The notes beneath the pieces are model-generated. The model did not search any database and had not been told where the DNA came from. It saw only the letters and a program-made list of their open reading frames with translations. Positions 6,001-33,119 of a DNA stretch of 64,000 bases are shown in pieces (the stretch's first letter is position 1; every line of letters begins with the position of its first letter). Both the position numbers and the translations under genes were made by a program. The DNA is from Eledone cirrhosa (lineage: Eukaryota). The stretch is taken from contig OZ024740.1 of NCBI GenBank assembly GCA_964016885.1, forward strand, positions 407,030,001 through 407,094,000. The letters are read 5' to 3'.

Positions 6001-9000
6001 GTGCATTTTAACGTGGAACTAACACTACTACTTTACAGTGTACTGGGTGCATTTTAATGTGGAACTAACACTACTACTTTACAGTGTACTGGGTGCATTT
6101 TAACGTGGAACTAACACTACTACTTTACAGTGTACTGGGTGCATTTTAACGTGGAACTAACGCTACTACCTTACAGTGTACTGGGTGCATTTTAACGTGG
6201 AACTAACACTACTACCTTACAGTGTATTGGGTGCATTTTAACGTGGAACTAACAGTAGTACTTTACAGTGTACTGGGTGCATTTGAACGTGGAACTAACG
6301 CTACTACTTTACAGTGTACTGGGTGCATTTTAATGTGGAACTAACACTACTACCTTACAGTGTACTGGGTGCATTTTAACGTGCAACTAACACTACTACT
6401 TTACAGTGTACTGGGTGCATTCTAACGTGGAACTAACACTACTATCTTACAGTGTACTGGGTGCATTTTAACGTGGAACTAACACTACTACCTTACAGTG
6501 TACTGGGTGCATTTTAACGTGGAACTAACACTACTACTTTACAGTGTACTGGGTGTATTTTAACGTGGCACTAACGCTACTACTTTACAGTGTACTGGGT
6601 GCATTTTAATGTGGTACTAAGACTACTACTTTACAGTGTACTTGGTGCATTTTAATGTGGAACTAACGCTACTACCTTACAGTGTACTGGGTGCATTTTA
6701 ACCTGGAACTAACACTACTACTTTACAGTGTACTGGGTGTATTTTAACGTGGAACTAACACTACTACTTTACAGTGTACTGGGTGCATTTTAACGTGGAA
6801 CTAACACTACTACTTTACAGTGTACTGGGTGCATTTTAATGTGGAACTAACACTACTACTTTACAGTGTACTGGGTGCATTTTAACGTGGAACTAACACT
6901 ACTACTTTACAGTGTACTGGGTGCATTTTAACGTGGAACTAACGCTACTACCTTACAGTGTACTGGGTGCATTTTAACGTGGAACTAACGCTACTACTTT
7001 ACTGTGTACTGGGTGCATTTTAATGTGGAACTAACACTACTACTTTACAGTGTACTGGGTGCATTTTAACGTGGAACTAACACTACTACTTTACAGTGTA
7101 CTGGGTGCATTTTAACGTGGAACTAACACTACTACTTTACAGTGTACTGGGTGCATTTTAATGTGGAACTAAGACTACTACTTTACAGTGTACTGGGTGC
7201 ATTTTAACGTGGAACTAACACTACTACTTTACAGTGTACTGGGTGCATTTTAACGTGGAACTAACACTACTACTTTACAGTGTACTGGGTGCATTTTAAT
7301 GTGGAACTAACGCTACTACCTTACAGTGTACTGGGTGCATTTTAACGTGGAACTAACACTACTACCTTACAGTGTACTGGGTGCATTTTAAGGTGGAACT
7401 AACAGTACTACTCTACAGTGTACTGGGTGCATTTTAACGTGGAACTAACGCTACTACTTTACAGTGTACTGGGTGCATTTTAACGTAGAACTAACACTAA
7501 TACTTTACAGTGAACTGGGTGCATTTTAATGTGGAACTAACACTACTACCTTACAGTGTACTGGGTGCATTTTAAGGTGGAACTAACACTACTACCTTAC
7601 AGTGTACTGGGTGCATTTTAACGTGGAACTAACACTAATACCTTACAGTGTACTGGGTGCATTTTAATGTGGAACTAACACTACTACCTTACAGTGTACT
7701 GGGTGTATTTTAACGTGGAACTAACACTACTACTTTACAGTGTACTGGGTGCATTCTTACGTGGAACTAACACTACTATCATACAGTGTACTGGGTGCAT
7801 TTTAATGTGGAACTAACACTACTACTTTACAGTGTACTGGGTGCATTTTAACGTGGAACTAACACTACTACTTTACAGTGTACTGGGTGCATTTTAACGT
7901 GGAACTAACACTACTACTTTACAGTGTACTGGGTGTATTTTAATGTGGAACTAACGCTACTACTTTACAGTGTACTGGGTGCATTTTAAAGTGGAACTAA
8001 CACTACTGCCTTACAGTGTACTGGGTGCATTTTAATGTGGAACTAACACTACTACCTTACAGTGTACTGGGTGCTTTTTAATGTGGAACTAACACTGCTA
8101 TCTTACAGTGTACTGGGTGCATGTTAACGTGGAACTAACACTACTACCTTACAGTGTACTGGGTGCATTTTAACGTGTAACTAACACTACTACTTTACAG
8201 TTTACTGGGTGCATTTTAACGTGGAACTAACACTACTACTTTACAGTGTACTGGGTGCATTTTAACGTGGAACTAACACTACTACTTTACAGTGTACTGG
8301 GTGTATTTTAACGTGGAACTAACACTACTACTTTACAGTGTACTGGGTGCATTTTAATGTGGAACTAACGCTACTACTTTACAGTGTACTGGGTGCATTT
8401 TAATCAGGAACTAACACTACTACTTTACAGTGTACTGGGTGCATTTTAATGTGGAACTAACACTACTACCTTACAATGTACTGGGTGCATTTTAATGTGG
8501 AACTAACACTACTACCTTACAGTTTACTGGGTCCATTTTAACGTGGAACTAACACTACTACCTTACAGTGTACTGGGTGCATTTTAATGTGGAACTAACA
8601 CTACTACCTTACAGTGTACTGGGTGCATTTTAATGTGGAACTAACACTACTACCTTACAGTGTACTGGGTGCATTTTAACGTGGAACTAACACTACTACT
8701 TTACAGTGTACTGGGTGCATTCTAACGTGGAACTAACACTACTATCTTACAGTGTACTGGGTGCATTCTAACGTGGAACTAACACTATTACTTTACAGTG
8801 TACTGGGTGCATTTTAACGTGGAACTAACACTACTACTTTACAGTGTACTGGGTGCATTTTAACGTGGAACTAACACTACTACTTTACAGTGTACTGGGT
8901 GCATTTTAACGTGGATCTAACACTACTACTTTACAGTGTACTGGGTGCATTTTAACGTGGAACTAACACTACTACTTTACAGTGTACTGGGTGCATTTTA

Positions 9001-12000
9001 ATGTGGAACTAACGCTACTACTTTACAGTGTACTGGGTGCATTTTAACGTGGAACTAACACTACTGCCTTACAGTGTACTGGGTGCATTTTAATGTGGAA
9101 CTAACACTACTAGCTTACAGTGTACTGGCTGCATTTTAACGAGGAACTAACACTACTACCTTACAGTGTACTGGGTGCATTTTAATGTGGAACTAACACT
9201 ACTACCTTGCAGTGTACTGGGTGCATTTTAACGTGGAACTAACACTACTACTTTACAGTGTACTGGGTGCATTTTAACGTGGAACTAACACTACTACTTT
9301 ACAGTGTACTGGGTGCATTTTAACGTGGTACTAACGCTACTACTTTACAGTGTACTGGGTGCATTTTAATGTGGAACTAACACTACTACTTTACAGTGTA
9401 CTGGGTGCATTTTAACGTAGAACTAACACTACTACTTTACAGTGTACTGGGTGCATTTTAACGTGGAACTAACACTACTACTTTACAGTGTACTGGGTGC
9501 ATTTTAACGTGGAACTAACGCTACTACTTTACAGTGTACTGGGTGCATTTTTATCTGGAACTAACACTACTACTTTACAGTGTACTGGGTGCATTTTAAT
9601 GTGGAACTAAGACTACTACTTTACAGTGTACTGGGTGCATTTTAACGTGGAACTAACACTACTACTTTACAGTGTACTGGGTGCATTTTAATGTGGAACT
9701 AACGCTACTACCTTACAGTGTACTGGGTGCATTTTAACGTGGAACTAACACTACTACTTTACAGTGTACTGGGTGTATTTTAACGTGGAACTAACACTAC
9801 TACTTTACAGTGTACTGGGTGCATTTTAACGTGGAACTAACACTACTACTTTACAGTGTACTGGGTGCATTTTAATGTGGAACTAACACTACTACTTTAC
9901 AGTGTACTGGGTGCATTTTAACGTGGAACTAACACTACTACTTTACAGTGTACTGGGTGCATTTTAACGTGGAACTAACGCTACTACCTTACAGTGTACT
10001 GGGTGCATTTTAACGTGGAACTAACACTACTACCTTACAGTGTATTGGGTGCATTTTAACGTGGAACTAACAGTAGTACTTTACAGTGTACTGGGTGCAT
10101 TTGAACGTGGATCTAACGCTACTACTTTACAGTGTACTGGGTGCATTTTAATGTGGAACTAACACTACTACCTTACAGTGTACTGGGTGCATTTTAACGT
10201 GCAACTAACACTACTACTTTACAGTGTACTGGGTGCATTCTAACGTGGAACTAACACTACTATCTTACAGTGTACTGGGTGCATTTTAACGTGGAACTAA
10301 CACTACTACCTTACAGTGTACTGGGTGCATTTTAACGTGGAACTAACACTACTACTTTACAGTGTACTGGGTGTATTTTAACGTGGCACTAACGCTACTA
10401 CTTTACAGTGTACTGGGTGCATTTTAATGTGGTACTAAGACTACTACTTTACAGTGTACTTGGTGCATTTTAATGTGGAACTAACGCTACTACCTTACAG
10501 TGTACTGGGTGCATTTTAACCTGGAACTAACACTACTACTTTACAGTGTACTGGGTGTATTTTAACGTGGAACTAACACTACTACTTTACAGTGTACTGG
10601 GTGCATTTTAACGTGGAACTAACACTACTACTTTACAGTGTACTGGGTGCATTTTAATGTGGAACTAACACTACTACTTTACAGTGTACTGGGTGCATTT
10701 TAACGTGGAACTAACACTACTACTTTACAGTGTACTGGGTGCATTTTAACGTGGAACTAACGCTACTACCTTACAGTGTACTGGGTGCATTTTAACGTGG
10801 AACTAACGCTACTACTTTACTGTGTACTGGGTGCATTTTAATGTGGAACTAACACTACTACTTTACAGTGTACTGGGTGCATTTTAACGTGGAACTAACA
10901 CTACTACTTTACAGTGTACTGGGTGCATTTTAACGTGGAACTAACACTACTACTTTACAGTGTACTGGGTGCATTTTAATGTGGAACTAAGACTACTACT
11001 TTACAGTGTACTGGGTGCATTTTAACGTGGAACTAACACTACTACTTTACAGTGTACTGGGTGCATTTTAACGTGGAACTAACACTACTACTTTACAGTG
11101 TACTGGGTGCATTTTAATGTGGAACTAACGCTACTACCTTACAGTGTACTGGGTGCATTTTAACGTGGAACTAACACTACTACCTTACAGTGTACTGGGT
11201 GCATTTTAAGGTGGAACTAACAGTACTACTCTACAGTGTACTGGGTGCATTTTAACGTGGAACTAACGCTACTACTTTACAGTGTACTGGGTGCATTTTA
11301 ATGTGGAACTAACACTACTACTTTACAGTGTACTGGGTGCATTTTAACGTGGAACTAACACTACTACTTTACAGTGTACTGGGTGCATTTTACCGTGGAA
11401 CTAACACTACTACTTTACAGTGTACTGGGTGTATTTTAATGTGGAACTAACGCTACTACTTTACAGTGTACTGGGTGCATTTTAAAGTGGAACTAACACT
11501 ACTGCCTTACAGTGTACTGGGTGCATTTTAATGTGGAACTAACACTACTACCTTACAGTGTACTGGGTGCTTTTTAATGTGGAACTAACACTGCTATCTT
11601 ACAGTGTACTGGGTGCATGTTAACGTGGAACTAACACTACTACCTTACAGTGTACTGGGTGCATTTTAACGTGGAACTAACACTACTACTTTACAGTTTA
11701 CTGGGTGCATTTTAACGTGGAACTAACACTACTACTTTACAGTGTACTGGGTGCATTTTAACGTGGAACTAACACTACTACTTTACAGTGTACTGGGTGT
11801 ATTTTAACGTGGAACTAACACTACTACTTTACAGTGTACTGGGTGCATTTTAATGTGGAACTAACGCTACTACTTTACAGTGTACTGGGTGCATTTTAAT
11901 CAGGAACTAACACTACTACTTTACAGTGTACTGGGTGCATTTTAATGTGGAACTAACACTACTACCTTACAATGTACTGGGTGCATTTTAATGTGGAACT

Positions 12001-15000
12001 AACACTACTACCTTACAGTTTACTGGGTCCATTTTAACGTGGAACTAACACTACTACCTTACAGTGTACTGGGTGCATTTTAATGTGGAACTAACACTAC
12101 TACCTTACAGTGTACTGGGTGCATTTTAATGTGGAACTAACACTACTACCTTACAGTGTACTGGGTGCATTTTAACGTGGAACTAACACTACTACTTTAC
12201 AGTGTACTGGGTGCATTCTAACGTGGAACTAACACTACTATCTTACAGTGTACTGGGTGCATTTTAACGTGGAACTAACACTATTACTTTACAGTGTACT
12301 GGGTGCATTTTAACGTGGAACTAACACTACTACTTTACAGTGTACTGGGTGCATTTTAACGTGGAACTAACACTACTACTTTACAGTGTACTGGGTGCAT
12401 TTTAACGTGGATCTAACACTACTACTTTACAGTGTACTGGGTGCATTTTAACGTGGAACTAACACTACTACTTTACAGTGTACTGGGTGCATTTTAATGT
12501 GGAACTAACGCTACTACTTTACAGTGTACTGGGTGCATTTTAACGTGGAACTAACACTACTGCCTTACAGTGTACTGGGTGCATTTTAATGTGGAACTAA
12601 CACTACTAGCTTACAGTGTACTGGCTGCATTTTAACGAGGAACTAACACTACTACCTTACAGTGTACTGGGTGCATTTTAATGTGGAACTAACACTACTA
12701 CCTTGCAGTGTACTGGGTGCATTTTAACGTGGAACTAACACTACTACTTTACAGTGTACTGGGTGCATTTTAACGTGGAACTAACACTACTACTTTACAG
12801 TGTACTGGGTGCATTTTAACGTGGTACTAACGCTACTACTTTACAGTGTACTGGGTGCATTTTAATGTGGAACTAACACTACTACTTTACAGTGTACTGG
12901 GTGCATTTTAACGTAGAACTAACACTACTACTTTACAGTGTACTGGGTGCATTTTAACGTGGAACTAACACTACTACTTTACAGTGTACTGGGTGCATTT
13001 TAACGTGGAACTAACGCTACTACTTTACAGTGTACTGGGTGCATTTTTATCTGGAACTAACACTACTACTTTACAGTGTACTGGGTGCATTTTAATCAGG
13101 AACTAACACTACTACTTTACAGTGAACTGGGTGCATTTTAATGTGGAACTAACACTACTACCTTACAGTGTACTGGGTGCATTTTAATGTGGAACTAACA
13201 CTACTACCTTACAGTGTACTGGGTGCATTTTTACGTGGAACTAACACTACTACCTTACAGTGTACTGGGTGCATTTTAATGTGGAACTAACACTACTACC
13301 TTACAGTGTACTGGGTGAATTTTAATGTGGAACTAACACTACTACCTTACAGTGTACTGGGTGCATTTTAACGTGGAACTAACACTACTACTTTACAGTG
13401 TACTGGGTGCATTCTTACGTGGAACTAACACTACTATCTTACAGTATGCTGGGTGCATTTTAACGTGGAACTAACACTACTACTTTACAGTGTACTGGTT
13501 GCATTTTAACATGGAACTAACACTACTACTTTACAGTGTACTGGGTGTATTTTAACGTGGAACTAACACTACTACTTTACAGTGTGCTGGGTGCATTTTA
13601 ACGTGGAACTAACACTACTACTTTACAGTGTACTGGGTGCATTTTAATGTGGAACTAACACTACTACTTTACAGTGTACTGGGTGCATTTTAACGTGGAA
13701 CTAACGCTACTACTTTACAGTGTACTGGGTGCATTTTAATGTGGAACTAAGACTACTACTTTACAGTGTACTGGGTGCATTTTAACGTGGAACTAACACT
13801 ACTACTTTACAGTGTACTGGGTGCATTTTAATGTGGAACTAACACTACTACCTTGCAGTGTACTGGGTGCAATTTAACGTGGAACTAACAGTAGTACTTT
13901 ACAGTGTACTGGGTGCATTTTAACGTGGAACTAACGCTACTACTTTACAGTGTACTCGGTGCATTTTAATGTGGAACTAACACTACTACTTTACAGTGTA
14001 CTGGGTGCATTCTAACGTGGAACTAACACTACTACTTTACAGTGTACTGGGTGCATTCTAACGTGGAACTAACACTACTATCTTACAGTGTACTGGGTGC
14101 ATTTTAACGTGGAACTAACACTACTACTTTACAGTGTACTGGGTGCATTTTAACGTGGAACTAACACTACTACTTTACAGTGTACTGGGTGCATTTTAAC
14201 GTGGAACTAACACTACTACCTTACAGTGTACTGGGTGCATTTTAACGTGGAACTAACAGTACTACTTTACAGTGTACTGGGTGCATTTTAACGTGGAACT
14301 AACGCTACTTCTTTACAGTGTACTGGGTGCATTTTAATGTGGAACTAACACTACTACTTTACAGTGTACTGGGTGCATTTTAACGTGGAACTAACACTAC
14401 TACTTTACAGTGTACTGGCTGCATTTTAACGTGGAACTAACACTACTACCTTACAGTGTACTGGGTGCATTTTAACGTGGAACTAACACTACTACTTTAC
14501 AGTGTACTGGGTGCATTTTAACGTGGAACTAACACTACTACTTTACAGTGTACTGGGTGCATTTTAACGTGGAACTAACACTACTACTTTACAGTGTACT
14601 GGGTGCATTTTAACGTGGAACTAACACTACTACTTTACAGTGTACTGGGTGCATTTTAATGTGGAACTAACACTACTACCTTACAGTGTACTGGGTGCAT
14701 TTTAACGTGGAACTTACACTACTACCTTACAGTGTACTGGGTGCATTTTATTGTGGAACTAACACTACTACCTTACAGTGTACTGGGTGCATTTTAATGT
14801 GGAACTAACACTACTACCTTACAGTGTACTGGGTGCATTTTAACGTGGAACTAACACTACTACTTTACAGTGTACTGGGTGCATTTTAACGTGGAACTAA
14901 CACTACTACTTTACAGTGTACTGGGTGCATTTTAACGTGGAACTAACACTACTACTTTACAGTGTACTGGGTGCATTTTAACGTGGAACTAACACTACTA

Positions 15001-18000
15001 CTTTACAGTGTACTGGGTGCATTTTAATGTGGAACTAACGCTACTACTTTACAGTGTACTGGGTGCATTTTAATCAGGAACTAACACTACTACCTTACAA
15101 TGTACTGGGTGCATTTTAATGTGGAACTAACACTACTACCTTACAGTGTACTGGGTGCATTTTAATGTGGAACTAACACTACTACCTTACAGTGTACTGG
15201 GTGCATTTTAATGTGGAACTAACACTACTACCTTACAGTATCCTGGGTGCATTTTAACGTGGAACTAACACTACTACCTTACAGTGTACTGGGTGCATTT
15301 TAATGTGGAACTAACACTACTACCTTACAGTGTACTGGGTGCATTTTAATGTGGAACTAACACTACTACCTTACAGTATCCTGGGTGCATTTTAACGTGG
15401 AACTAACACTACTACCTTACAGTGTACTGAGTGCATTCTAACGTGGAACTAACACTACTATCTTACAGTGTACTGGGTGCATTTTAACGTGGAACTAACA
15501 CTACTACTTTACAGTGTACTGGGTGCATTTTAACGTGGAACTAACACTACTACTTTACAGTGTACTGGGTGCATTTTAACGTGGAACTAACACTACTACT
15601 TTACAGTGTACTGGGTGCATTTTAACGTGGAACTAACACTACTACTTTACAGTGTACTGGGTGCATTTTAACGTGGAACTAACACTACTACTTTACAGTG
15701 TACTGGGTGCATTTTAATGTGGAACTAATACTACTACTTTACAGTGTACTGGGTGCCTTTTAACGTGGAACTAACGCTACTACTTTACAGTGTACTGGGT
15801 GCATTTTAATGTGGAACTAAGACTACTACTTTACAGTGTACTGGGTGCATTTTAACGTGGAACTAACACTACTACTTTACAGTGTACTGGGTGCATTTTA
15901 ATGTGGAACTAACACTACTACTTTACAGTGTACTGGGTGCATTTTAATGTGGAACTAACGCTACTACCTTACAGTGTACTGGGTGCATTTTAACGTGGAA
16001 CTAACACTACTACCTTACAGTGTACTGGGTGCATTTTAACGTGGAACTAACACTACTACTTTACAGTGTACTGGGTGCATTTTAATGTGGAACTAACACT
16101 ACTACTTTACAATGTACTGGGTGCATTTTAATGTGGAACTAACGCTACTACCTTACAGTGTACTGGGTGCATTTTAACGTGGAACTAACACTACTACCTT
16201 ACAGTGTACTGGGTGCATTTTAACGTGGAACTAACAGTACTACTTTACAGTGTACTGGGTGCATTTTAAGGTGGAACTAACGCTACTACTTTACAGTGTA
16301 CTGGGTGCATTTTAATGTGGAACTAACACTACTACTTTACAGTGTACTGGGTGCATTTTAACGTGGAACTAACACTATTACTTTACAGTGTACTGGGTGC
16401 ATTTTAACGTGGAACTAACACTACTACTTTACAGTGTACTGGGTGCATTTTAATGTGGAACTAACGCTACTACTTTACAGTGTACTGGGTGCATTTTAAC
16501 GTGGAACTAACGCTACTTCTTTACAGTGTACTGGGTGCATTTTAACGTGGAACTTACACTACTACCTTACAGTGTACTGGGTGCATTTTAATGTGGAACT
16601 AACAGTACTACTTTACAGTGTACTGGGTGCATTTTAACGTGGAACTAACGCTACTACTTTACAGTGTACTGGGTGCATTTTAATGTGGAACTAACACTAC
16701 TACTTTACAGTGTACTGGGTGCATTTTAACGTGGAACTAACACTATTACTTTACAGTGTACTGGGTGCATTTTAACGTGGAACTAACACTACTACTTTAC
16801 AGTGTACTGGGTGCATTTTAATGTGGAACTAACGCTACTACTTTACAGTGTACTGGGTGCATTTTAATGTGGAACTAACACTACTGCCTTACAGTGTACT
16901 GCGTGCATTTTAATGTGGAACTAACACTACTACCTTACAGTGTACTGGGTGCATTTTAACGTGGAACTAACACTACTACCTTACAGTGTACTGGGTGCAT
17001 TTTAATGTGGAACTAACACTACTACCTTACAGTGTACTGGGTGCATTTTAATGTGGAACTAACACTACTACCTTACAGTGTCCTGGGTGCATTTTAACGT
17101 GGAACTAACACTACTACCTTACAGTGTACTGGGTGCATTCTAACGTGGAACTAACACTACTATCTTACAGTGTACTGGGTGCATTTTAACGTGGAACTAA
17201 TACTACTACTTTACAGTGTACTGGGTGCATTTTAACGTGGAACTAACACTACTACTTTACAGTGTACTGGGTGCATTTTAACGTGGAACTAACGCTACTA
17301 CTTTACAGTGTACTGGGTGCATTTTAATGTGGAACTAACACTACTACTTTACAGTGTACTGGGTGCATTTTAACGTGGAACTAACACTACTAGCTTACTG
17401 TGTACTGGCTGCATTTTAACGTGGAACTAACACTACTACTTTACAGTGTACTGGGTGCATTTTAATGTGGAACTAACGCTACTACCTTACAGTGTACTGG
17501 GTGCATTTTAACGTGGAACTAACACTACTACCTTACAGTGTACTGGGTGCATTTTAACGTGGAACTAACACTACTACTTTACAGTGTACTGGGTGCATTT
17601 TAACGTGGAACTAACACTACTACTTTACAGTGTACTGGGTGCATTTTAACGTGGAACTAACGCTACTACTTTACAGTGTACTGGGTGCATTTTAATGTGG
17701 AACTAACACTACTACTTTACAGTGTACTCGTTGCATTTTAACGTGGAACTAACACTATTACTTTACAGTGTACTGGGTGCATTTTAACGTGGAACTAACA
17801 CTACTACTTTACAGTGTACTGGGTGCATTTTAATGTGGAACTAACGCTACTACTTTACAGTGTACTGGGTGCATTTTAATGTGCAACTAACACTACTGCC
17901 TTACAGTGTACTGCGTGCATTTTAATGTGGAACTAACACTACTACCTTACAGTGTACTGGGTGCATTTTAATGTGGAACTAACACTACTATCTTACAGTG

Positions 18001-18729
18001 TACTGGGTGCATTTTAATGTGGAACTAACACTACTACCTTACAGTGTACTGGGTGCATTTTAATGTGGAACTAACACTACTACCTTACAGTGTACTGGGT
18101 GCATTTTAACGTGGAACTAACACTACTACTTTACAGTGTACTGGGTGCATTTTAACGTGGAACTAACACTACTACTTTACAGTGTACTGGGTGCATTTTA
18201 ACGTGGAACTAACACTACTACTTTACAGTGTACTGGGTGCATTTTAATGTGGAACTAACGCTACTACTTTACAGTGTACTGGGTGCATTTTAACGTGGTA
18301 CTAACGCTACTACTTTACAGTGTACTGGGTGCATTTTAATGTGGAACTAACACTACTACTTTACTGTGTACTGGGTGCATTTTAACGTAGAACTAACACT
18401 ACTACTTTACAGTGCACTGGGTGCATTTTAACGTGGAACTAACACTACTACTTTACAGTGTACTGGGTGCATTTTAACGTGGAACTAACACTACTACTTT
18501 ACAGTGTACTGGGTGCATTTTAACGTGGAACTAACACTACTACTTTACAGTGCACTGGGTGCATTTTAACGTGGAACTAACACTACTGCCTTACAGTGTA
18601 CTGGGTGCATTTTAATGTGGATCTAACACTACTACCTTACAGTGTACTGGGTGCATTTTAATGTGGAACTAACACTACTACTTTACAGTGTACTGGGTGC
18701 ATTTTAATGTGGAACTAACACTACTACTT
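1..18729. repeat. 46-bp tandem satellite, ~407 units, runs off the left edge; consensus CACTACTACTTTACAGTGTACTGGGTGCATTTTAAYGTGGAACTAA
   Basis: Unit restarts at 1, 47, 93, 231, 1381 (multiples of 46). Only point variants and two 2-bp deletions (~2685, ~4753). Degenerate units continue to ~18910. Confidence 0.98.
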
Positions 18730-19249
18730 GGCAGGGTATTGAATGCATTTTAATGTAGTACCAGCACTTTTACTTTAGTGTACGGGGGGGGGGGGGCAGT
18801 TTATCGAGGCACCAGCATCACCACATTATAGTGTACTGCATGCATGTTATTGTTGTGTCTGCATTACCACTAGACAGTGTATTGGATGACACCAGCACTA
18901 CCACATTACAGGGTGTAGTGGAGGCAAGATTATTGGAATCATTTTACTTAATCTAACTTCTAGTGGCATGGAGGGGCATTTCTCTTTGATTGCTATTTTC
19001 TTTTTATAAGTCAACAGAGGTTGAAAGGTCATATTCCACAACATTTTGCAGGTATTCCAAGATTAATGAGATTGATGAAGCTAATGGCTAGCTTGAACAA
19101 ATATATGCAGATCAATTTTGGCAGGAAAAACATAGGTGTACAAGAAATTTCTGTAGTAAAGTGAATTCATCTAAAGGCACCTAAGGTCCAGTTGATGGAG
19201 TCAATCATGGCCTTGTTGAGGCACAACTTCTTCACCCACTTAGTCATGG

Positions 19250-20079
19250 GAGGGTTGTGAGGATAGTCCTTAAGTACTTTTTCTAGTGGTTCCTTTTAGA
19301 AGCAACCATCTCCAATTGATCCAGCTATATCCCCAAGGAAGACCAGCTGAGCTCGTGGATGTTATCTAACCATCTTGCTCAGTGTCTACCCTTGGGTCTC
19401 ATGCCAGCTGGTTTTTCCCATAAAATCTGTCCTACAATTCTTTCCTGAGACATTCTAACCATATGTCTGTAATATCAGAGCTGTAATCTCTCAATTCAGA
19501 ATGTGGCAGCTCTAGCTAGAGCAACTCTCTAATATCTGAGTTACACACTCCATCAAGTAATATTACTGCAAAGATCCTTCGGAGCAACCCCATTTTGGCC
19601 GCTTGTATTCAAAATTGTATTCTTTCGGTCATTACCCAAGATTGATGACCATATGTAAGGGTTGGCACAAATACTGAATTGAAGATTGCGAGTTTGGCTT
19701 TTATACTTACCAACCTTCTTCTGGTGACTGAATTCTGAAGTTGGCACATTACTGGACCACCTTCTGCAATTCTTGCAATCAATTCAGCTTCCTGCCTTCC
19801 ATCACTTGTGAACATGGTACTGAGATACTTGAATTTCTCCACCTGCTTCAGTTGTAGAGTGTACTGTACAGGCTTCTTTGAGAAGACGAGTGTCTCAGTC
19901 TTCACAGCACTGATTTTCATTCCTACTGTACAGGACTTGGCATCAAATCTATCAAGTGCATGTCAAAGATCAGTAGAGTTAAGTAGCACGTTATCTGCCA
20001 ATTCCAGCCAACTGTTCCTACATTTGCCCCTCTTGACATCTCTTCCAGCATGGCTACAAACATCAATCCTGTCCATGAA
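19250..20079 (-). mobile_element. Decayed RTE-clade LINE, 3' part of RT ORF (from motif C to the C-terminus)
   Basis: Minus-strand translation FIIFMDRID...LADNVLL (FADD-like)...MKISAVKTE...QVEKFKYL...KAKLAIFNSVFVPTLTYGHQSWVMTER...RPKGRH*ARWLDNI matches RTE RT C-terminal motifs. Stops and frameshifts present. Confidence 0.88.
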
Positions 20080-23000
20080 TATAATGAACAGGACAGGTAA
20101 CAGCACTCTTGGCAGAGTCCAATCCCCACTATAATGAACAGGACAGGTGACAGCACTCTTGGCAGAGTCCAATCCCCACTATAATGAACAGGACAGGTGA
20201 CAGCACTCTTGGCAGTGTCCAATCCCCACTATAATGAACAGGACAGGTGACAGCACTCTTGGCAGAGTCCAATCCCCACTATAATGAACAGGACAGGTGA
20301 CAGCACTCTTGGCAGAGTCCAATCACCACTATAATGAACAGGACAGGTAACAGCACTCTTGGCAGAGTCCAATCCCCACTATAATGAACAGGACAGGTGA
20401 AAGCAATCTTGGCAGAGTCCAATCCCCACTATAATGAACAGGACAGGTGACAGCACTATTGGCAGTGTCCAATCCCCACTATAATGAACAGGACAAGTAA
20501 CAGCACTCTTGGCAGAGTCCAATCCCCACTATAATGAACAGGACAGGTGACAGCACTCTTGGCAGTGTCCAATCCCCACTATAATGAACAGGACAGGTAA
20601 CAGCAGTCTTGGCAGAGTCCAATCCCCACTATAATGAACAGGACAGGTAACAGCACTCTTGGCAGAGTCCAATCCCCACTATAATGAACAGGACAGGTGA
20701 CAGCACTCTTGGCAGAGTCCAATCCCCACTATAATGAACAGGACAGGTGACAGCACTCTTGGCAGAGTCCAATCCCCACTATAATGAACAGGACAGGTGA
20801 AAGCACTCTTGGCAGAGTCCAATCCCCACTATAATGAACAGGACAGGTGACAGCACTCTTGGCAGAGTCCAATCCCCACTATAATGAACAGGACAGGTGA
20901 AAGCACTCTTGGCAGAGTCCAATCCCCACTATAATGAACAGGACAGGTGACAGCACTCTTGGCAGAGTCCAATCCCCACTATAATGAACAGGACAGGTGA
21001 AAGCACTCTTGGCAGAGTCCAATCCCCACTATAATGAACAGGACAGGTGACAGCACTCTTGGCAGAGTCCAATCCCCACTATAATGAACAGGACAGGTGA
21101 CAGCACTCTTGGCAGAGTCCAATCCCCACTATAATGAACAGGACAGGTGACAGCACTCTTGGCAGTGTCCAATCCCCACTATAATGAACAGGACAGGTGA
21201 CAGCACTCTTGGCAGAGTCCAATCACCACTATAATGAACAGGACAGGTGACAGCACTCTTGGCAGTGTCCAATCCCCACTATAATGAACAGGACAGGTGA
21301 CAGCACTCTTGGCAGAGTCCAATCCCCACTATAATGAACAGGACAGGTGACAGCACTCTTGGCAGAGTCCAATCCTCACTATAATGAACAGGACAGGTGA
21401 AAGCACTCTTGGCAGAGTCCAATCCCCACTATAATGAACAGGACAGGTGAGAGCACTCTTGGCAGAGTCCAATCCCCACTAAAATGAACAGGACAGGTGA
21501 CAGCACTCTTGGCAGAGTCCAATCCCCACTATAATGAACAGGACAGGTGACAGCACTCTTGGCAGAGTCCAATCCCCACTATAATGAACAGGACAGGTGA
21601 CAGCACTCTTGGCAGAGTCCAATCCCCACTATAATGAACAGGACAGGTAACAGCACTCTTGGCAGAGTCCAATCCCCACTATAATGAACAGGACAGGTGA
21701 CAGCACTCTTGGCAGAGTCCAATCCCCACTATAATGAACAGGACAGGTGACAGCACTCTTGGCAGAGTCCAATCCCCACTATAATGAACAGGACAGGTGA
21801 CAGCACTCTTGGCAGAGTCCAATCCCCACTATAATGAACAGGACAGGTGACAGCACTCTTGGCAGAGTCCAATCCCCACTATAATGAACAGGACAGGTAA
21901 CAGCACTCTTGGCAGAGTCCAATCCCCACTATAATGAACAGGACAGGTGACAGCACTCTTGGCAGAGTCCAATCCCCACTAAAATGAACAGGACAGGTGA
22001 CAGCACTCTTGGCAGAGTCCAATCCCCACTATAATGAACAGGACAGGTGACAGCACTCTTGGCAGAGTCCAATCCCCACTATAATGAACAGGACAGGTGA
22101 CAGCACTCTTGGCAGAGTCCAATCCCCACTATAATGAACAGGACAGGTGACAGCATTCTTGGCAGAGTCCAATCCCCACTATAATGAACAGGACAGGTGA
22201 AAGCACTCTTGGCAGAGTCCAATCCCCACTATAATGAACAGGACAGGTGACAGCACTCTTGGCAGAGTCCAATCCCCACTATAATGAACAGGACAGGTGA
22301 CAGCACTCTTGGCAGAGTCCAATCCCCACTATAATGAACAGGACAGGTGACAGCACTCTTGGCAGAGTCCAATCCCCACTATAATGAACAGGACAGGTGA
22401 CAGCACTCTTGGCAGAGTCCAATCCCCACTATAATGAACAGGACAGGTGACAGCACTCTTGGCAGAGTCCAATCCCCACTATAATGAACAGGACAGGTGA
22501 CAGCACTCTTGGCAGAGTCCAATCCCCACTATAATGAACAGGACAGGTGACAGCACTCTTGGCAGAGTCCAATCCCCACTATAATGAACAGGACAGGTGA
22601 CAGCACTCTTGGCAGAGTCCAATCCCCACTATAATGAACAGGACAGGTGACAGCACTCTTGGCAGAGTCCAATCCCCACTATAATGAACAGGACAGGTGA
22701 CAGCACTCTTGGCAGTGTCCAATCCCCACTATAATGAACAGGACAGGTGACAGCACTCTTGGCAGAGTCCAATCCCCACTATAATGAACAGGACAGGTGA
22801 CAGCACTCTTGGCAGAGTCCAATCCCCACTATAATGAACAGGACAGGTAACAGCACTCTTGGCAGAGTCCAATCCCCACTATAATGAACAGGACAGGTAA
22901 CAGCACTCTTGGCAGAGTCCAATCCCCACTATAATGAACAGGACAGGTGACAGCACTCTTGGCAGTGTCCAATCCCCACTATAATGAACAGGACAGGTAA

Positions 23001-26000
23001 CAGCACTCTTGGCAGAGTCCAATCCCCACTATAATGAACAGGACAGGTGAAAGCACTCTTGGCAGAGTCCAATCCCCACTATAATGAACAGGACAGGTGA
23101 CAGCACTCTTGGCAGAGTCCAATCCCCACTATAATGAACAGGACAGGTGACAGCACTCTTGGCAGAGTCCAATCCCCACTATAATGAACAGGACAGGTAA
23201 CAGCACTCTTGGCAGAGTCCAATCCCCACTATAATGAACAGGACAGGTAACAGCACTCTTGGCAGAGTCCAATCCCCAGTATAATGAACAGGACAGGTGA
23301 CAGCACTCTTGGCAGAGTCCAATCCCCACTATAATGAACAGGACAGGTGACAGCACTCTTGGCAGAGTCCAATCCCCACTATAATGAACAGGACAGGTAA
23401 CAGCACTCTTGGCAGAGTCCAATCCCCACTATAATGAACAGGACAGGTAACAGCACTCTTGGCAGAGTCCAATCCCCACTATAATGAACAGGACAGGTGA
23501 CAGCACTCTTGGCAGAGTCCAATCCCCACTATAATGAACAGGACAGGTGACAGCACTCTTGGCAGAGTCCAATCCCCACTATAATGAACAGGACAGGTGA
23601 CAGCACTCTTGGCAGAGTCCAATCCCCACTATAATGAACAGGATAGGTGACAGCACTCTTGGCATGTCCAATCCCCACTATAATGAACAGGACAGGTGAC
23701 AGCACTCTTGGCAGATTCCAATCCCCACTATAATGAACAGGACAGGTGACAGCACTCTTGGCAGAGTCCAATCCCCACTATAATGAACAGGACAGGTAAC
23801 AGCACTCTTGGCAGAGTCCAATCCCCACTATAATGAACAGGACAGGTAACAGCACTCTTGGCAGAGTCCAATCCCCACTATAATGAACAGGACAGGTGAC
23901 AGCACTCTTGGCAGAGTCCAATCCCCACTATAATGAACAGGACAGGTGACAGCACTCTTGGCAGAGTCCAATCCCCACTATAATGAACAGGACAGGTGAC
24001 AGCACTCTTGGCAGAGTCCAATCCCCACTATAATGAACAGGACAGGTGACAGCACTCTTGGCAGAGTCCAATCCCCACTATAATGAACAGGATAGGTGAC
24101 AGCACTCTTGGCATGTCCAATCCCCACTATAATGAACAGGACAGGTGACAGCACTCTTGGCAGATTCCAATCCCCACTATAATGAACAGGGACAGGTGAC
24201 AGCACTCTTGGCAGAGTCCAATCCCCACTATAATGAACAGGACAGGTAACAGCACTCTTGGCAGAGTCCAATCCCCACTATAATGAACAGGACAGGTAAC
24301 AGCACTCTGGCAGAGTCCAATCCCCACTATAATGAACAGGACAGGTGACAGCACTCTTGGCAGTGTCCAATCCCCACTATAATGAACAGGACAGGTGAAA
24401 GCACTCTTGGTAGAGTCCAATCCCCACTATAATGAACAGGACAGGTGACAGCACTCTTGGCAGAGTCCAATCCCCACTATAATGAACAGGACAGGTGACA
24501 GCACTCTTGGCAGAGTCCAATCCCCACTATAATGAACAGGACAGGTGAAAGCACTCTTGGCAGAGTCCAATCCCCACTATAATGAACAGGACAGGTGAAA
24601 GCACTCTTGGCAGAGTCCAATCCCCACTATAATGAACAGGACAGGTGACAGCACTCTTGGCAGAGTCCAATCCCCACTATAATGAACAGGACAGGTAACA
24701 GCACTCTTGGCAGTGTCCAATCCCCACTATAATGAACAGGACAGGTGACAGCACTCTTGGCAGTGTCCAATCCCCACTATAATGAACAGGACAGGTGACA
24801 GCACTCTTGGCAGAGTCCAATCCCCACTATAATGAACAGGACAGGTGACAGCACTCTTGGCAGTGTCCAATCCCCACTATAATGAACAGGACAGGTAACA
24901 GCACTCTTGGCAGAGTCCAATCCCCACTATAATGAACAGGACAGGTAACAGCACTCTTGGCAGAGTCCAATCCCCACTATAATGAACAGGACAGGTAACA
25001 GCACTCTTGGCAGAGTCCAATCCCCACTATAATGAACAGGACAGGTAACAGCACTCTTGGCAGAGTCCAATCCCCACTATAATGAACAGGACAGGTAACA
25101 GCACTCTTGGCAGAGTCCAATCCCCACTATAATGAACAGGACAGGTAACAGCACTCTTGGCAGAGTCCAATCCCCACTATAATGAACAGGACAGGTGACA
25201 GCACTCTTGGCAGAGTCCAATCCCCACTATAATGAACAGGACAGGTGACAGCACTCTTGGCAGTGTCCAATCCCCACTATAATGAACAGGACAGGTGACA
25301 GCACTCTTGGCAGTGTCCAATCCCCACTATAATGAACAGGACAGGTGACAGCACTCTTGGCAGTGTCCAATCCCCACTATAATGAACAGGACAGGTGACA
25401 GCACTCTTGGCAGTGTCCAATCCCCACTATAATGAACAGGACAGGTGACAGCACTCTTGGCAGTGTCCAATCCCCACTATAATGAACAGGACAGGTGACA
25501 GCACTCTTGGCAGAGTCCAATCCCCACTATAATGAACAGGACAGGTGACAGCACTCTTGGCAGAGTCCAATCCCCACTATAATGAACAGGACAGGTGACA
25601 GCACTCTTGGCAGTGTCCAATCCCCACTATAATGAACAGGACAGGTAACAGCACTCTTGGCAGAGTCCAATCCCCACTATAATGAACAGGACAGGTAACA
25701 GCACTCTTGGCAGAGTCCAATCCCCACTATAATGAACAGGACAGGTAACAGCACTCTTGGCAGTGTCCAATCCCCACTATAATGAACAGGACAGGTGACA
25801 GCACTCTTGGCAGAGTCCAATCCCCACTATAATGAACAGGACAGGTAACAGCACTCTTGGCAGAGTCCAATCCCCACTATAATGAACAGGACAGGTGAAA
25901 GCACTCTTGGCAGAGTCCAATCCCCACTATAATGAACAGGACAGGTGACAGCACTCTTGGCAGAGTCCAATCCCCACTATAATGAACAGGACAGGTGACA

Positions 26001-29000
26001 GCACTCTTGGCAGAGTCCAATCCCCACTATAATGAACAGGACAGGTGACAGCACTCTTGGCAGAGTCCAATCCCCACTATAATGAACAGGACAGGTAACA
26101 GCACTCTTGGCAGAGTCCAATCCCCGCTATAATGAACAGGACAGGTGACAGCACTCTTGGCAGAGTCCAATCCCCACTATAATGAACAGGACAGGTGACA
26201 GCACTCTTGGCAGAGTCCAATCCCCACTATAATGAACAGGACAGGTGACAGCACTCTTGGCAGAGTCCAATCCCCACTATAATGAACAGGACAGGTGACA
26301 GCACTCTTGGCAGTGTCCAATCCCCACTATAATGAACAGGACAGGTGACAGCACTCTTGGCAGTGTCCAATCCCCACTATAATGAACAGGACAGGTGACA
26401 GCACTCTTGGCAGAGTCCAATCCCCACTATAATGAACAGGACAGGTGACAGCACTCTTGGCAGAGTCCAATCCCCACTATAATGAACAGGACAGGTGACA
26501 GCACTCTTGGCAGAGTCCAATCCCCACTATAATGAACAGGACAGGTGAAAGCACTCTTGGCAGAGTCCAATCCCCACTATAATGAACAGGACAGGTGACA
26601 GCACTCTTGGCAGAGTCCAATCCCCACTATAATGAACAGGACAGGTAACAGCACTCTTGGCAGAGTCCAATCCCCACTATAAAGAACAGGACAGGTGACA
26701 GCACTCTTGGCAGAGTCCAATCCCCACTATAATGAACAGGACAGGTGACAGCACTCTTGGCAGAGTCCAATCCCCACTATAATGAACAGGACAGGTGACA
26801 GCACTCTTGGCAGAGTCCAATCCCCACTATAATGAACAGGACAGGTAACAGCACTCTTGGCAGAGTCCAATCCCCACTATAATGAACAGGACAGGTGACA
26901 GCACTCTTGGCAGAGTCCAATCCCCACTATAATGAACAGGACAGGTGACAGCACTCTTGGCAGAGTCCAATCCCCACTATAATGAACAGGACAGGTGAAA
27001 GCACTCTTGGCAGAGTCCAATCCCCACTATAATGAACAGGACAGGTGACAGCACTCTTGGCAGAGTCCAATCCCCACTATAATGAACAGGACAGGTGAAA
27101 GCACTCTTGGCAGAGTCCAATCCCCACTATAATGAACAGGACAGGTGAAAGCACTCTTGGCAGAGTCCAATCCCCACTATAATGAACAGGACAGGTGACA
27201 GCACTCTTGGCAGAGTCCAATCCCCACTATAATGAACAGGACAGGTGACAGCACTCTTGGCAGAGTCCAATCCCCACTATAATGAACAGGACAGGTAACA
27301 GCACTCTTGGCAGAGTCCAATCCCCACTATAATGAACAGGACAGGTGACAGCACTCTTGGCAGAGTCCAATCCCCACTATAATGAACAGGACAGGTGACA
27401 GCACTCTTGGCAGAGTCCAATCCCCACTATAATGAACAGGACAGGTGAAAGCACTCTTGGCAGAGTCCAATCCCCACTATAATGAACAGGACAGGTGACA
27501 GCACTCTTGGCAGAGTCCAATCCCCACTATAATGAACAGGACAGGTGACAGCACTCTTGGCAGAGTCCAATCCCCACTATAATGAACAGGACAGGTGAAA
27601 GCACTCTTGGCAGAGTCCAATCCCCACTATAATGAACAGGACAGGTGAAAGCACTCTTGGCAGAGTCCAATCCCCACTATAATGAACAGGACAGGTAACA
27701 GCACTCTTGGCAGAGTCCAATCCCCACTATAATGAACAGGACAGGTGACAGCACTCTTGGCAGTGTCCAATCCCCACTATAATGAACAGGACAGGTGACA
27801 GCACTCTTGGCAGTGTCCAATCCCCACTATAATGAACAGGACAGGTGACAGCACTCTTGGCAGTGTCCAATCCCCACTATAATGAACAGGACAGGTGACA
27901 GCACTCTTGGCAGTGTCCAATCCCCACTATAATGAACAGGACAGGTGACAGCACTCTTGGCAGAGTCCAATCCCCACTATAATGAACAGGACAGGTGACA
28001 GCACTCTTGGCAGAGTCCAATCCCCACTATAATGAACAGGACAGGTGACAGCACTCTTGGCAGTGTCCAATCCCCACTATAATGAACAGGACAGGTAACA
28101 GCACTCTTGGCAGAGTCCAATCCCCACTATAATGAACAGGACAGGTAACAGCACTCTTGGCAGAGTCCAATCCCCACTATAATGAACAGGACAGGTAACA
28201 GCACTCTTGGCAGTGTCCAATCCCCACTATAATGAACAGGACAGGTGACAGCACTCTTGGCAGAGTCCAATCCCCACTATAATGAACAGGACAGGTAACA
28301 GCACTCTTGGCAGAGTCCAATCCCCACTATAATGAACAGGACAGGTGAAAGCACTCTTGGCAGAGTCCAATCCCCACTATAATGAACAGGACAGGTGACA
28401 GCACTCTTGGCAGAGTCCAATCCCCACTATAATGAACAGGACAGGTGACAGCACTCTTGGCAGAGTCCAATCCCCACTATAATGAACAGGACAGGTGACA
28501 GCACTCTTGGCAGAGTCCAATCCCCACTATAATGAACAGGACAGGTAACAGCACTCTTGGCAGAGTCCAATCCCCACTATAATGAACAGGACAGGTGACA
28601 GCACTCTTGGCAGAGTCCAATCCCCACTATAATGAACAGGACAGGTGACAGCACTCTTGGCAGAGTCCAATCCCCACTATAATGAACAGGACAGGTGACA
28701 GCACTCTTGGCAGTGTCCAATCCCCACTATAATGAACAGGACAGGTGACAGCACTCTTGGCAGTGTCCAATCCCCACTATAATGAACAGGACAGGTGACA
28801 GCACTCTTGGCAGAGTCCAATCCCCACTATAATGAACAGGACAGGTGACAGCACTCTTGGCAGAGTCCAATCCCCACTATAATGAACAGGACAGGTGACA
28901 GCACTCTTGGCAGAGTCCAATCCCCACTATAATGAACAGGACAGGTGAAAGCACTCTTGGCAGAGTCCAATCCCCACTATAATGAACAGGACAGGTGACA

Positions 29001-31883
29001 GCACTCTTGGCAGAGTCCAATCCCCACTATAATGAACAGGACAGGTAACAGCACTCTTGGCAGAGTCCAATCCCCACTATAATGAACAGGACAGGTGACA
29101 GCACTCTTGGCAGAGTCCAATCCCCACTATAATGAACAGGACAGGTGACAGCACTCTTGGCAGAGTCCAATCCCCACTATAATGAACAGGACAGGTGACA
29201 GCACTCTTGGCAGAGTCCAATCCCCACTATAATGAACAGGACAGGTAACAGCACTCTTGGCAGAGTCCAATCCCCACTATAATGAACAGGACAGGTGACA
29301 GCACTCTTGGCAGAGTCCAATCCCCACTATAATGAACAGGACAGGTGACAGCACTCTTGGCAGAGTCCAATCCCCACTATAATGAACAGGACAGGTGAAA
29401 GCACTCTTGGCAGAGTCCAATCCCCACTATAATGAACAGGACAGGTGACAGCACTCTTGGCAGAGTCCAATCCCCACTATAATGAACAGGACAGGTGACA
29501 GCACTCTTGGCAGAGTCCAATCCCCACTATAATGAACAGGACAGGTGAAAGCACTCTTGGCAGAGTCCAATCCCCACTATAATGAACAGGACAGGTGAAA
29601 GCACTCTTGGCAGAGTCCAATCCCCACTATAATGAACAGGACAGGTGACAGCACTCTTGGCAGAGTCCAATCCCCACTATAATGAACAGGACAGGTGACA
29701 GCACTCTTGGCAGAGTCCAATCCCCACTATAATGAACAGGACAGGTAACAGCACTCTTGGCAGAGTCCAATCCCCACTATAATGAACAGGACAGGTGACA
29801 GCACTCTTGGCAGAGTCCAATCCCCACTATAATGAACAGGACAGGTGACAGCACTCTTGGCAGAGTCCAATCCCCACTATAATGAACAGGACAGGTGACA
29901 GCACTCTTGGCAGAGTCCAATCCCCACTATAATGAACAGGACAGGTGACAGCACTCTTGGCAGAGTCCAATCCCCACTATAATGAACAGGACAGGTGAAA
30001 GCACTCTTGGCAGAGTCCAATCCCCACTATAATGAACAGGACAGGTGAAAGCACTCTTGGCAGAGTCCAATCCCCACTATAATAAACAGGACAGGTAACA
30101 GCACTCTTGGCAGAGTCCAATCCCCACTATAATGAACAGGACAGGTGACAGCACTCTTGGCAGAGTCCAATCCCCACTATAATGAACAGGACAGGTGAAA
30201 GCACTCTTGGCAGAGTCCAATCCCCACTATAATGAACAGGACAGGTAACAGCACTCTTGGCAGAGTCCAATCCCCACTATAATGAACAGGACAGGTGACA
30301 GCACTCTTGGCAGAGTCCAATCCCCACTATAATGAACAGGACAGGTGACAGCACTCTTGGCAGAGTCCAATCCCCACTATAATGAACAGGACAGGTGACA
30401 GCACTCTTGGCAGTGTCCAATCCCCACTATAATGAACAGGACAGGTGACAGCACTCTTGGCAGTGTCCAATCCCCACTATAATGAACAGGACAGGTGACA
30501 GCACTCTTGGCAGTGTCCAATCCCCACTATAATGAACAGGACAGGTGACAGCACTCTTGGCAGTGTCCAATCCCCACTATAATGAACAGGACAGGTGACA
30601 GCACTCTTGGCAGTGTCCAATCCCCACTATAATGAACAGGACAGGTGACAGCACTCTTGGCAGTGTCCAATCCCCACTATAATGAACAGGACAGGTGACA
30701 GCACTCTTGGCAGTGTCCAATCCCCACTATAATGAACAGGACAGGTGACAGCACTCTTGGCAGAGTCCAATCCCCACTATAATGAACAGGACAGGTGACA
30801 GCACTCTTGGCAGAGTCCAATCCCCACTATAATGAACAGGACAGGTGACAGCACTCTTGGCAGTGTCCAATCCCCACTATAATGAACAGGACAGGTGACA
30901 GCACTCTTGGCAGAGTCCAATCCCCACTATAATGAACAGGACAGGTGACAGCACTCTTGGCAGAGTCCAATCCCCACTATAATGAACAGGACAGGTGACA
31001 GCACTCTTGGCAGAGTCCAATCCCCACTATAATGAACAGGACAAGTGAAAGCACTCTTGGCAGAGTCCAATCCCCACTATAATGAACAGGACAGGTGAAA
31101 GCACTCTTGGCAGAGTCCAATCCCCACTATAATGAACAGGACAGGTGACAGCACTCTTGGCAGAGTCCAATCCCCACTATAATGAACAGGACAGGTGAAA
31201 GCACTCTTGGCAGAGTCCAATCCCCACTATAATGAACAGGACAGGTGACAGCACTCTTGGCAGAGTCCAATCCCCACTATAATGAACAGGACAGGTGACA
31301 GCACTCTTGGCAGAGTCCAATCCCCACTATAATGAACAGGACAGGTGAAAGCACTCTTGGCAGAGTCCAATCCCCACTATAATGAACAGGACAGGTGACA
31401 GCACTCTTGGCAGTGTCCAATCCCCACTATAATGAACAGGACAGGTGACAGCACTCTTGGCAGTGTCCAATCCCACTATAATGAACAGGACAGGTGACAG
31501 CACTCTTGGCAGAGTCCAATCCCCACTATAATGAACAGGACAGGTAACAGCACTCTTGGCAGAGTCCAATCCCCACTATAATGAACAGGACAGGTAACAG
31601 CACTCTTGGCAGAGTCCAATCCCCACTATAATGAACAGGACAGGTGAAAGCACTCTTGGCAGAGTCCAATCCCCACTATAATGAACAGGACAGGTGACAG
31701 CACTCTTGGCAGAGTCCAATCCCCACTATAATTAACAGGACAGGTGACAGCACTCTTGGCAAAGTCCAATCCCCACTATAATGAACAGGACAGGTAACAG
31801 CACTCTTGGCAGAGTCCAATCCCCACTATAATGAACAGGACAGGTAACAGCACTCTTGGCAGAGTCCAATCCCCACTATAATG
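20080..31883. repeat. 50-bp tandem satellite, 236 units; consensus TATAATGAACAGGACAGGTGACAGCACTCTTGGCAGAGTCCAATCCCCAC
   Basis: Exact 50-bp period with five 1-bp indels (net -3). Both ends bounded by TATAATG. The reverse complement encodes VGIGLCQE / VLSPVLFII, a remnant of RT motif B. Confidence 0.98.
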
Positions 31884-32190
31884 GTTTCAATTCTGCACCA
31901 TTTAACTGAACGCAAATCACAAATACTAGAATATTTCTATAGAGACTTCAGGGCAGAACCTTCCACATTGTCATTTGCCTTTTCGAGGTCTATGAAACAA
32001 AAATACACCTCTGGGCAGTTCTCCTACAATTTCTCAAAGACCCGCTACAGTGTGAATATTTGGTTGGTTGTGCTACCTCTGGGGCACAAAACCATACTGT
32101 TCTTGTTGGACTCAACTATTTTCCTACAATTTTTTGTCAGACACTTAGCATTAACTTTACCAGAGAGGCTTAACAAGTTGAGGCACCAAT
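31884..32190 (-). mobile_element. Decayed RTE-clade LINE, upstream RT part (motif A); same element as 19250-20079
   Basis: Minus strand reads LSLSGKVNAKCL...RGSTTNQIFTL*RVFEKL*ENCPEVYFCFIDLEKA...ALKSL...VQLNGAELKP and runs directly into the 50-bp unit. Confidence 0.88.
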
Positions 32191-32220
32191 ATTAAAATCA
32201 ATAATGGATAGTAATTGAGA

Positions 32221-33040: not shown

Positions 33041-33119
33041 GATGGATTTATTACTTTCAATGAGTTCATTCGAGCACTCTCCATCACTTCCCGAGGATCT
33101 TTGGATGAGAAACTTGACT
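33041..33119 (+). CDS. NCS1: NCS-1/frequenin-family calcium sensor, internal exon (second half of EF-hand 2): [26 protein letters not shown](W)
   Basis: AG acceptor at 33039-33040 and GTAAG donor at 33120; 79 nt, phase 0/1. Closely resembles NCS-1 [27 protein letters not shown]. The symbol denotes the family; the exact paralog is uncertain. Confidence 0.95.

Follow-up and report, generated by a model that had tools for sequence, protein, structure and literature searches.

The origin of a tandem repeat is hard to study, since the parent sequence has usually been lost. Among the human minisatellites derived from transposons that were described by Ahmed and Liang (2012), 300 of 7,276 were flanked by direct repeats of 5–20 bp, mostly of 7 bp; the Haber–Louis model was described for such flanking repeats, and longer repeats were attributed mainly to gene conversion (PMC3389668). 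Minor variants of the squamate SINE-derived satellites are described as retaining both element termini around the array, with longer arrays being more uniform (Vassetzky et al., 2023; PMC10702118). Satellites listed as related to LINEs include PROsat and Pvc 20 (L1 ORF2), HinfI (CR1) and the common cetacean satellite (L1 3′ end) (Zattera and Bruschi, 2022; PMC9659126), and the Ogre-derived satellites of Lathyrus are given as short arrays within retrotransposons with occasional expansion at a single site (Vondrak et al., 2020; PMC7004042). A microsatellite-like 3′ tail has been described for LINEs of the RTE clade (PMC6007223).

The array described here still has its parent and both junctions, and the family is represented by many copies, which allows the order of events to be tested. 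It spans 11.8 kb of the window (the whole stretch of 64,000 nucleotides of Eledone cirrhosa DNA that was analysed, to which all plain coordinates refer) and lies in the middle of the reverse transcriptase (RT) gene of a dead LINE within an intron of NCS-1. It is, in our judgement very probably, a minisatellite of a single locus, formed in place by amplification of the motif-B segment of one decayed LINE copy, which likely belonged to the RTE clade; the amplification was likely recent. The array and the two parts of the LINE copy are as follows.

20080 to 31883, minus strand: tandem array of 236 units of 50 bp, the unit being the motif-B segment without 4 nt
31884 to 32191, minus strand: 5′ part of the LINE copy, comprising the RT region to motif A (FIDLEKA) and the start of motif B (tblastn with P0012, residues 619–750; family profile)
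19139 to 20079, minus strand: 3′ part of the same copy, comprising motif C, the remaining RT, the C-terminal region and the start of the 3′ UTR (P0012 residues 750–1030; profile to 2839)

The family set consisted of 44 other loci, retrieved by using the unit and the right flank as queries (initially 2,522 candidates). On the DNA profile of these loci, 32177–31828 (the right flank and first unit) corresponded to positions 1370–1774, the inner units to 1722–1774 and 20129–19139 (the last unit and left flank) to 1722–2839, the two flanks overlapping in profile coordinates by one unit. P0012, an intact relative of 1,049 aa, was matched by tblastn at residues 619–750 (32191–31847), 750–968 (20106–19489) and 962–1030 (19495–19289), and the array broke its match within RT motif B. 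The original prediction, that removal of the array joins the flanks into one colinear RT and that the unit is the motif-B segment, was thus borne out at the DNA and the protein level. The two mappings together show that the flanks belong to one colinear LINE copy with the array unit as its missing middle, and they rule out different elements on the two sides. The progenitor and both junctions are preserved as predicted, the parent copy still flanking the array.

The LINE copy is 5′-truncated and decayed, its 5′ part carrying several stops and deletions. The 5′ part differs by about 17–18 % from the family majority and the 3′ part by 19 %. The element continues to about 19139, past the 19250 first given as its limit, and motif C was found where it had been placed but reads LADN, as opposed to FADD in the relatives. 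Judged by its stops, its deletions and this motif, the copy is dead. At about 31911–31924, some 27 nt from the right junction, it carries a 7-nt insertion relative to the family that resembles a local tandem duplication.

Three translations from the window flanks gave no match to an RT family in Pfam, and a faint match of a window translation to a viral RdRP (E 0.1) was disregarded. A better-kept family paralog (locus L080) matched Pfam RVT_1 with E 1.1e-9, above the cut-off, and the RT assignment of the window copy rests on this match and on the mapping of motifs A, B and C by P0012. The better-kept copy lies at L080:4930–6461 (about 79–80 kb in window coordinates), just past the last exon found of the host gene. 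All six of the nearest long relatives that were checked had lengths of 1,037–1,066 aa and PF14529/PF03372 together with PF00078, with no match to the CCHC pattern; the architecture of endonuclease and RT in about 1,050 aa is thus that of the long relatives, the window copy itself being truncated. In LINEs of the RTE clade, a single protein of about 1,050 aa combines an AP endonuclease and an RT and lacks a C-terminal CCHC. Membership of the RTE clade, which had been predicted outright, is likely by fit to this general architecture rather than by comparison with named references, none of the 77 protein matches being named RTE.

Two further features describe the surroundings of the array.

33041 to 33119, plus strand: exon of the host gene, of NCS-1/frequenin type (PDB match to NCS-1 residues 76–101, E 1.1e-8; flanking exons and splice sites)
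1 to 18753, plus strand: 46-bp satellite in the same intron, about 745 units over about 34 kb in all, extending to the left of the window, of separate origin and belonging to a multi-locus family

NCS-1 is a neuronal calcium sensor gene, and the array lies antisense to it in the intron that precedes the exon at 33041–33119. Located by their motifs, the previous exon ends 31.2 kb to the left of the window and later exons lie near 41.2 and 56.4 kb. Together, the 46-bp satellite (34.3 kb) and the 50-bp array make up 72 % of the array-bearing intron, which measures 64.3 kb. On the sense strand of the gene (plus), each array unit contains CAG and then GT, with no pyrimidine tract. The 46-bp satellite begins 15.5 kb to the left of the window (G000:C1:407014503 onward) and has relatives on at least ten contigs. 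A dispersed single-copy repeat (L017, L036, L037) is similar to the left flank and unit of the satellite, which may therefore also be transposon-born. An AT-rich simple repeat of 4.9 kb (57825–62716) stops at a gap of 200 N (62720–62919).

Tandem Repeats Finder reported the array at 20080–31883 with a period of 50, 236.1 copies and 98 % matches. When it was cut into its 236 units, 231 were of 50 nt, four of 49 nt and one of 51 nt, with a mean divergence from the array consensus of 1.2 %. There were 26 distinct unit types: 108 of the 236 units equalled the consensus, and the rest comprised three common one-base variants (47, 37 and 31 units) and rare singles. The common variants were interspersed along the array, and three units carried two of them. 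Unit order appeared non-random across the 26 types, the autocorrelation of unit labels having peaks at lags 48–49 (0.38 and 0.35 versus about 0.27).

A pattern of 28 bases across the unit junction, with one mismatch allowed, had 233 matches in the 3.0-Gb assembly, all 233 within the window array, and none was found elsewhere; the array is therefore single-locus. A genome-wide or multi-locus satellite with a 50-bp unit and unrelated flanks, which had been named beforehand as the competing view, is ruled out by this count. The DNA similarity search with the unit skips very common words and missed the array itself, and was not used for the locus count. Against the genome, the unit gave 38 dispersed single matches of 82–87 % identity, each with 4 extra bases.

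The length of the array is known here from the assembly and from contig depth rather than from spanning long reads, which gives some room to the idea that the assembly inflated a few units or that a satellite was inserted from elsewhere. We regard this as very improbable given the 26 unit types in non-random order, a depth excess of the unit of 100-fold or more, the lack of a junction copy elsewhere in the assembly and the exact match of the unit to the segment absent between the flanks. In X3 the contig depth of the unit was 528 versus 4.6 for the unique flank, which is 115-fold where 152 was expected; in X2 it was 810–1106 versus 5.5–6.1, and X4 had an excess similar to or higher than that of X3. 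Contig depth is not copy number and the comparison is rough, and X2–X4 are one sample that does not differ from the window and may be the source of the assembly itself. At that level, contig depth roughly supports the array length. One contig crosses the right junction and reaches only 30 letters into the array, and the left junction was absent among the contig pieces listed. A RAD run of one other individual (X5) had almost no cover of the 50-bp unit.

The relation of the unit to its family was examined in 34 aligned paralogs, 10 of the 44 loci having been excluded for low alignment score. The distance from the Q codon to the L codon was 12 nt in all 34 and 8 nt in the array copy, and the unit segment was 54 nt long in 31 of the 34 and 50 nt in the array. 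None of the 34 had the 4-nt gap of the array unit, and the predicted loss of about 4 nt in every unit was thereby confirmed. Compared with the majority of 19 paralogs picked by their flanks, 9 of 50 sites differed in the terminal unit and 8 in the consensus unit, against 22 of 132 and 12 of 49 sites in the flanks, so that unit decay was about equal to flank decay (16–18 %). A lower unit decay (8–10 %) was an effect of paralogs chosen for their likeness to the unit, and was gone with the flank-picked paralogs. The equal divergence indicates that the unit was already about as decayed as the flanks when it was amplified. Death of the element before amplification had been deduced from the frameshift shared by all units, which alone is no proof, as a frameshift acquired later could also have been spread by homogenisation; the decay load of the unit is the better argument and speaks for the same conclusion.

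The alternative is an old array kept uniform by concerted evolution, the 4-nt loss and the substitutions having spread to all units only once the first duplication had taken place. Since fixation in a homogenised array proceeds at roughly the neutral rate, such an array could show the same decay in its units as in its flanks; it would also fit the interspersed variants, partly recombined in the three units with two common variants. An old array is nevertheless unlikely, for its edge units are not degenerate, eight substitutions and the deletion would have to have spread to both terminal units and the related species X1 lacks a deep unit signal. At the array edges the match falls from 48–50 to a background of 5–8 in one step, with no degenerate units found at either end; by contrast, the edge of the neighbouring 46-bp satellite (its right edge) fades across about four units. 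The terminal units at both ends (20081–20130 and 31778–31877) share the derived variant 19G>A, the commonest unit having the family base, and turnover may thus reach the array edges. In X1 the unit signal was 1–38 versus 12.6 at the exon; over about 300 positions there, X1 had 7 gaps and 11 substituted letters relative to the window. A long orthologous piece was absent among those listed for X1, positions 18955–19209 had no cover and paralogs swamped the matches, so its lack of an array may be loss of the region. The decay, the unit spread of 1.2 % and the one-step edges make a recent expansion of a long-dead copy the simplest and likely reading, in agreement with the young expansion first proposed.

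A 7-bp word marks both edges of the array.

20080 to 20086, plus strand: TATAATG at the left edge, one base off the family word
31877 to 31883, plus strand: TATAATG at the right edge, where only the CATT part (minus strand) is present in the family

The original prediction held that this word, found 50 bp apart in a reconstructed ancestor, had seeded the first duplication. The word is present at both array ends, but its ancestral role found no support in the family. The family has CATTCAATGTG at the upstream site (14 of 34 paralogs) and CATTATTTWC at the downstream site (21 of 34). Between the two sites, 14 of the 34 paralogs have 4 nt in common and one has 5 nt, and none of the 34 carries a 7-mer shared by both sites, so the word is private to the window copy. 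The reconstructed ancestor had been built from the array's own edges, whilst the family shares only CATT. A short word at both ends of an array is thus not readable as an ancestral seed without a check against the family.

To make the pair of words, four derived changes are required, of which three fall within 4 nt of one arm, and the word could therefore also be a product of the array's birth; to this we give a substantial minority probability. It concerns the first duplication only, the in-place origin being the same. The duplication would have come first with little or no microhomology, from a pre-array state that retained CATTCAAT upstream, and the edge of the original first unit would later have received the downstream word, either through a crossover or deletion at the ancestral CATT or through a template switch. 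Where the family has CATTCAATGTG, the window has CATT with the downstream letters ATA and is one base shorter, a single templated event would substitute for three point changes, and the further 7-nt insertion resembling a local duplication lies about 27 nt upstream. Such a history, however, requires a blunt junction almost in register with CATT, and pairs of this kind also arise by decay: 42 decayed paralogs yielded 205 natural 7-bp pairs, of which 51 would require at least four derived changes and 53 have three or more in one arm, counts that are inflated by poorly aligned stretches. In decayed copies, the density of 7-bp pairs with a spacing of 30–100 bp is 5.2 per kb. Since 51 of the 205 natural pairs need as many changes, seeding by TATAATG stays plausible, and the view that the word is necessarily a rearrangement product is weakened. 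The feature expected for Haber–Louis seeding, a direct repeat of 5–10 bp at both ends, is present with 7 bp. No one-unit allele was found in any of the sequences examined, X1 included. On balance, we lean modestly towards TATAATG as the seed of the first duplication rather than its product.

With the word as seed, the history would run as follows. The LINE would have inserted 5′-truncated into the NCS-1 intron, decayed to about 18 % from its family and lost 4 nt in motif B. Private mutations would then have turned the 4-bp CATT pair of the family into a 7-bp direct repeat with its arms 50 bp apart, and mispairing at this repeat may have given the first duplication. Unequal exchange or conversion at several scales would have led to 236 units, spread the three one-base variants and copied a block of about 48 units. 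The interspersed variants, the units with two variants and the order at lags 48–49 favour unequal exchange or conversion over one-unit slippage alone. Slippage had been proposed as the means of amplification to 236 units; the unit number stands, and the data suggest that slippage alone does not account for an apparent repeated block of about 48 units. The effect of the array is most likely neutral, with no sign of function.

Other arrays in the genome stem from the same LINE family. A 65-bp multi-locus satellite has as its unit the C-terminal coding segment of this family (window 19437–19500). Its junction had 14,841 exact genome matches, its loci include L053, L063, L064, L066–L070 and G000:C1:2887266 onward, and a matching joint was also found in the related species X1. 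At L063, 27 units of 65 bp lie between colinear LINE flanks, both of which are kept. Arrays of 99 and 123 bp come from the same C-terminal segment with different junctions, at L055 (G000:C4:211210173–211213235), L056–L062 and L052 (C26). Tandem duplications of at least 20 bp in the LINE body were found in none of the 44 family loci, so array births are rare per LINE copy. A stretch of 20 kb (L071–L072, G000:C26:11340001–11360000) holds many unrelated minisatellites with periods of 21, 31, 61, 82, 103, 117 and 123, and parts of the genome are therefore very prone to tandem expansion.

There is, in our estimate, a nearly even chance that this one LINE family serves as a satellite nursery, its coding segments repeatedly giving rise to arrays, with a whole series present in the genome: a newborn single-locus array of 236 units of 50 bp with its parent intact, the 99- and 123-bp arrays as separate cases, and about 1 Mb of 65-bp satellite spread over many chromosomes, with some copies inside both LINE flanks and a similar joint in a related species. 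If this is true, the birth, growth and spread of a satellite would be datable within one clade.

No paper on this locus was found in literature searches. An in-place transposon-derived minisatellite is recognized by a unit that is one segment of a dispersed element and by flanks that continue the element in order, and both were found here. Like the human transposon-derived minisatellites, the array is a tandem repeat from part of an inserted element with flanking repeats of 7 bp; unlike that set, in which most unexplained cases are described as having only two units, its unit is LINE RT coding sequence and it has 236 units (PMC3389668). With the squamate satellites it shares the amplification of an internal retroposon piece to hundreds of units, whereas those are described as SINE-derived, mostly multi-locus and subtelomeric, and this array is LINE-derived, single-locus and intronic (PMC10702118). 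PROsat, Pvc 20, HinfI and the cetacean satellite likewise have monomers homologous to LINEs, ORF2 included, but as presented they are linked to LINEs by similarity, whereas here the parent copy and both junctions are in place (PMC9659126). The Ogre-derived satellites are closest to the 65-bp family found here; Ogre arrays, as described, pre-exist in the LTR element, whereas the 50-bp array is absent from its LINE family (none of 44 loci) (PMC7004042). The process is therefore already in print and is recurrent in this genome, and the array is an unusually complete new example of it.
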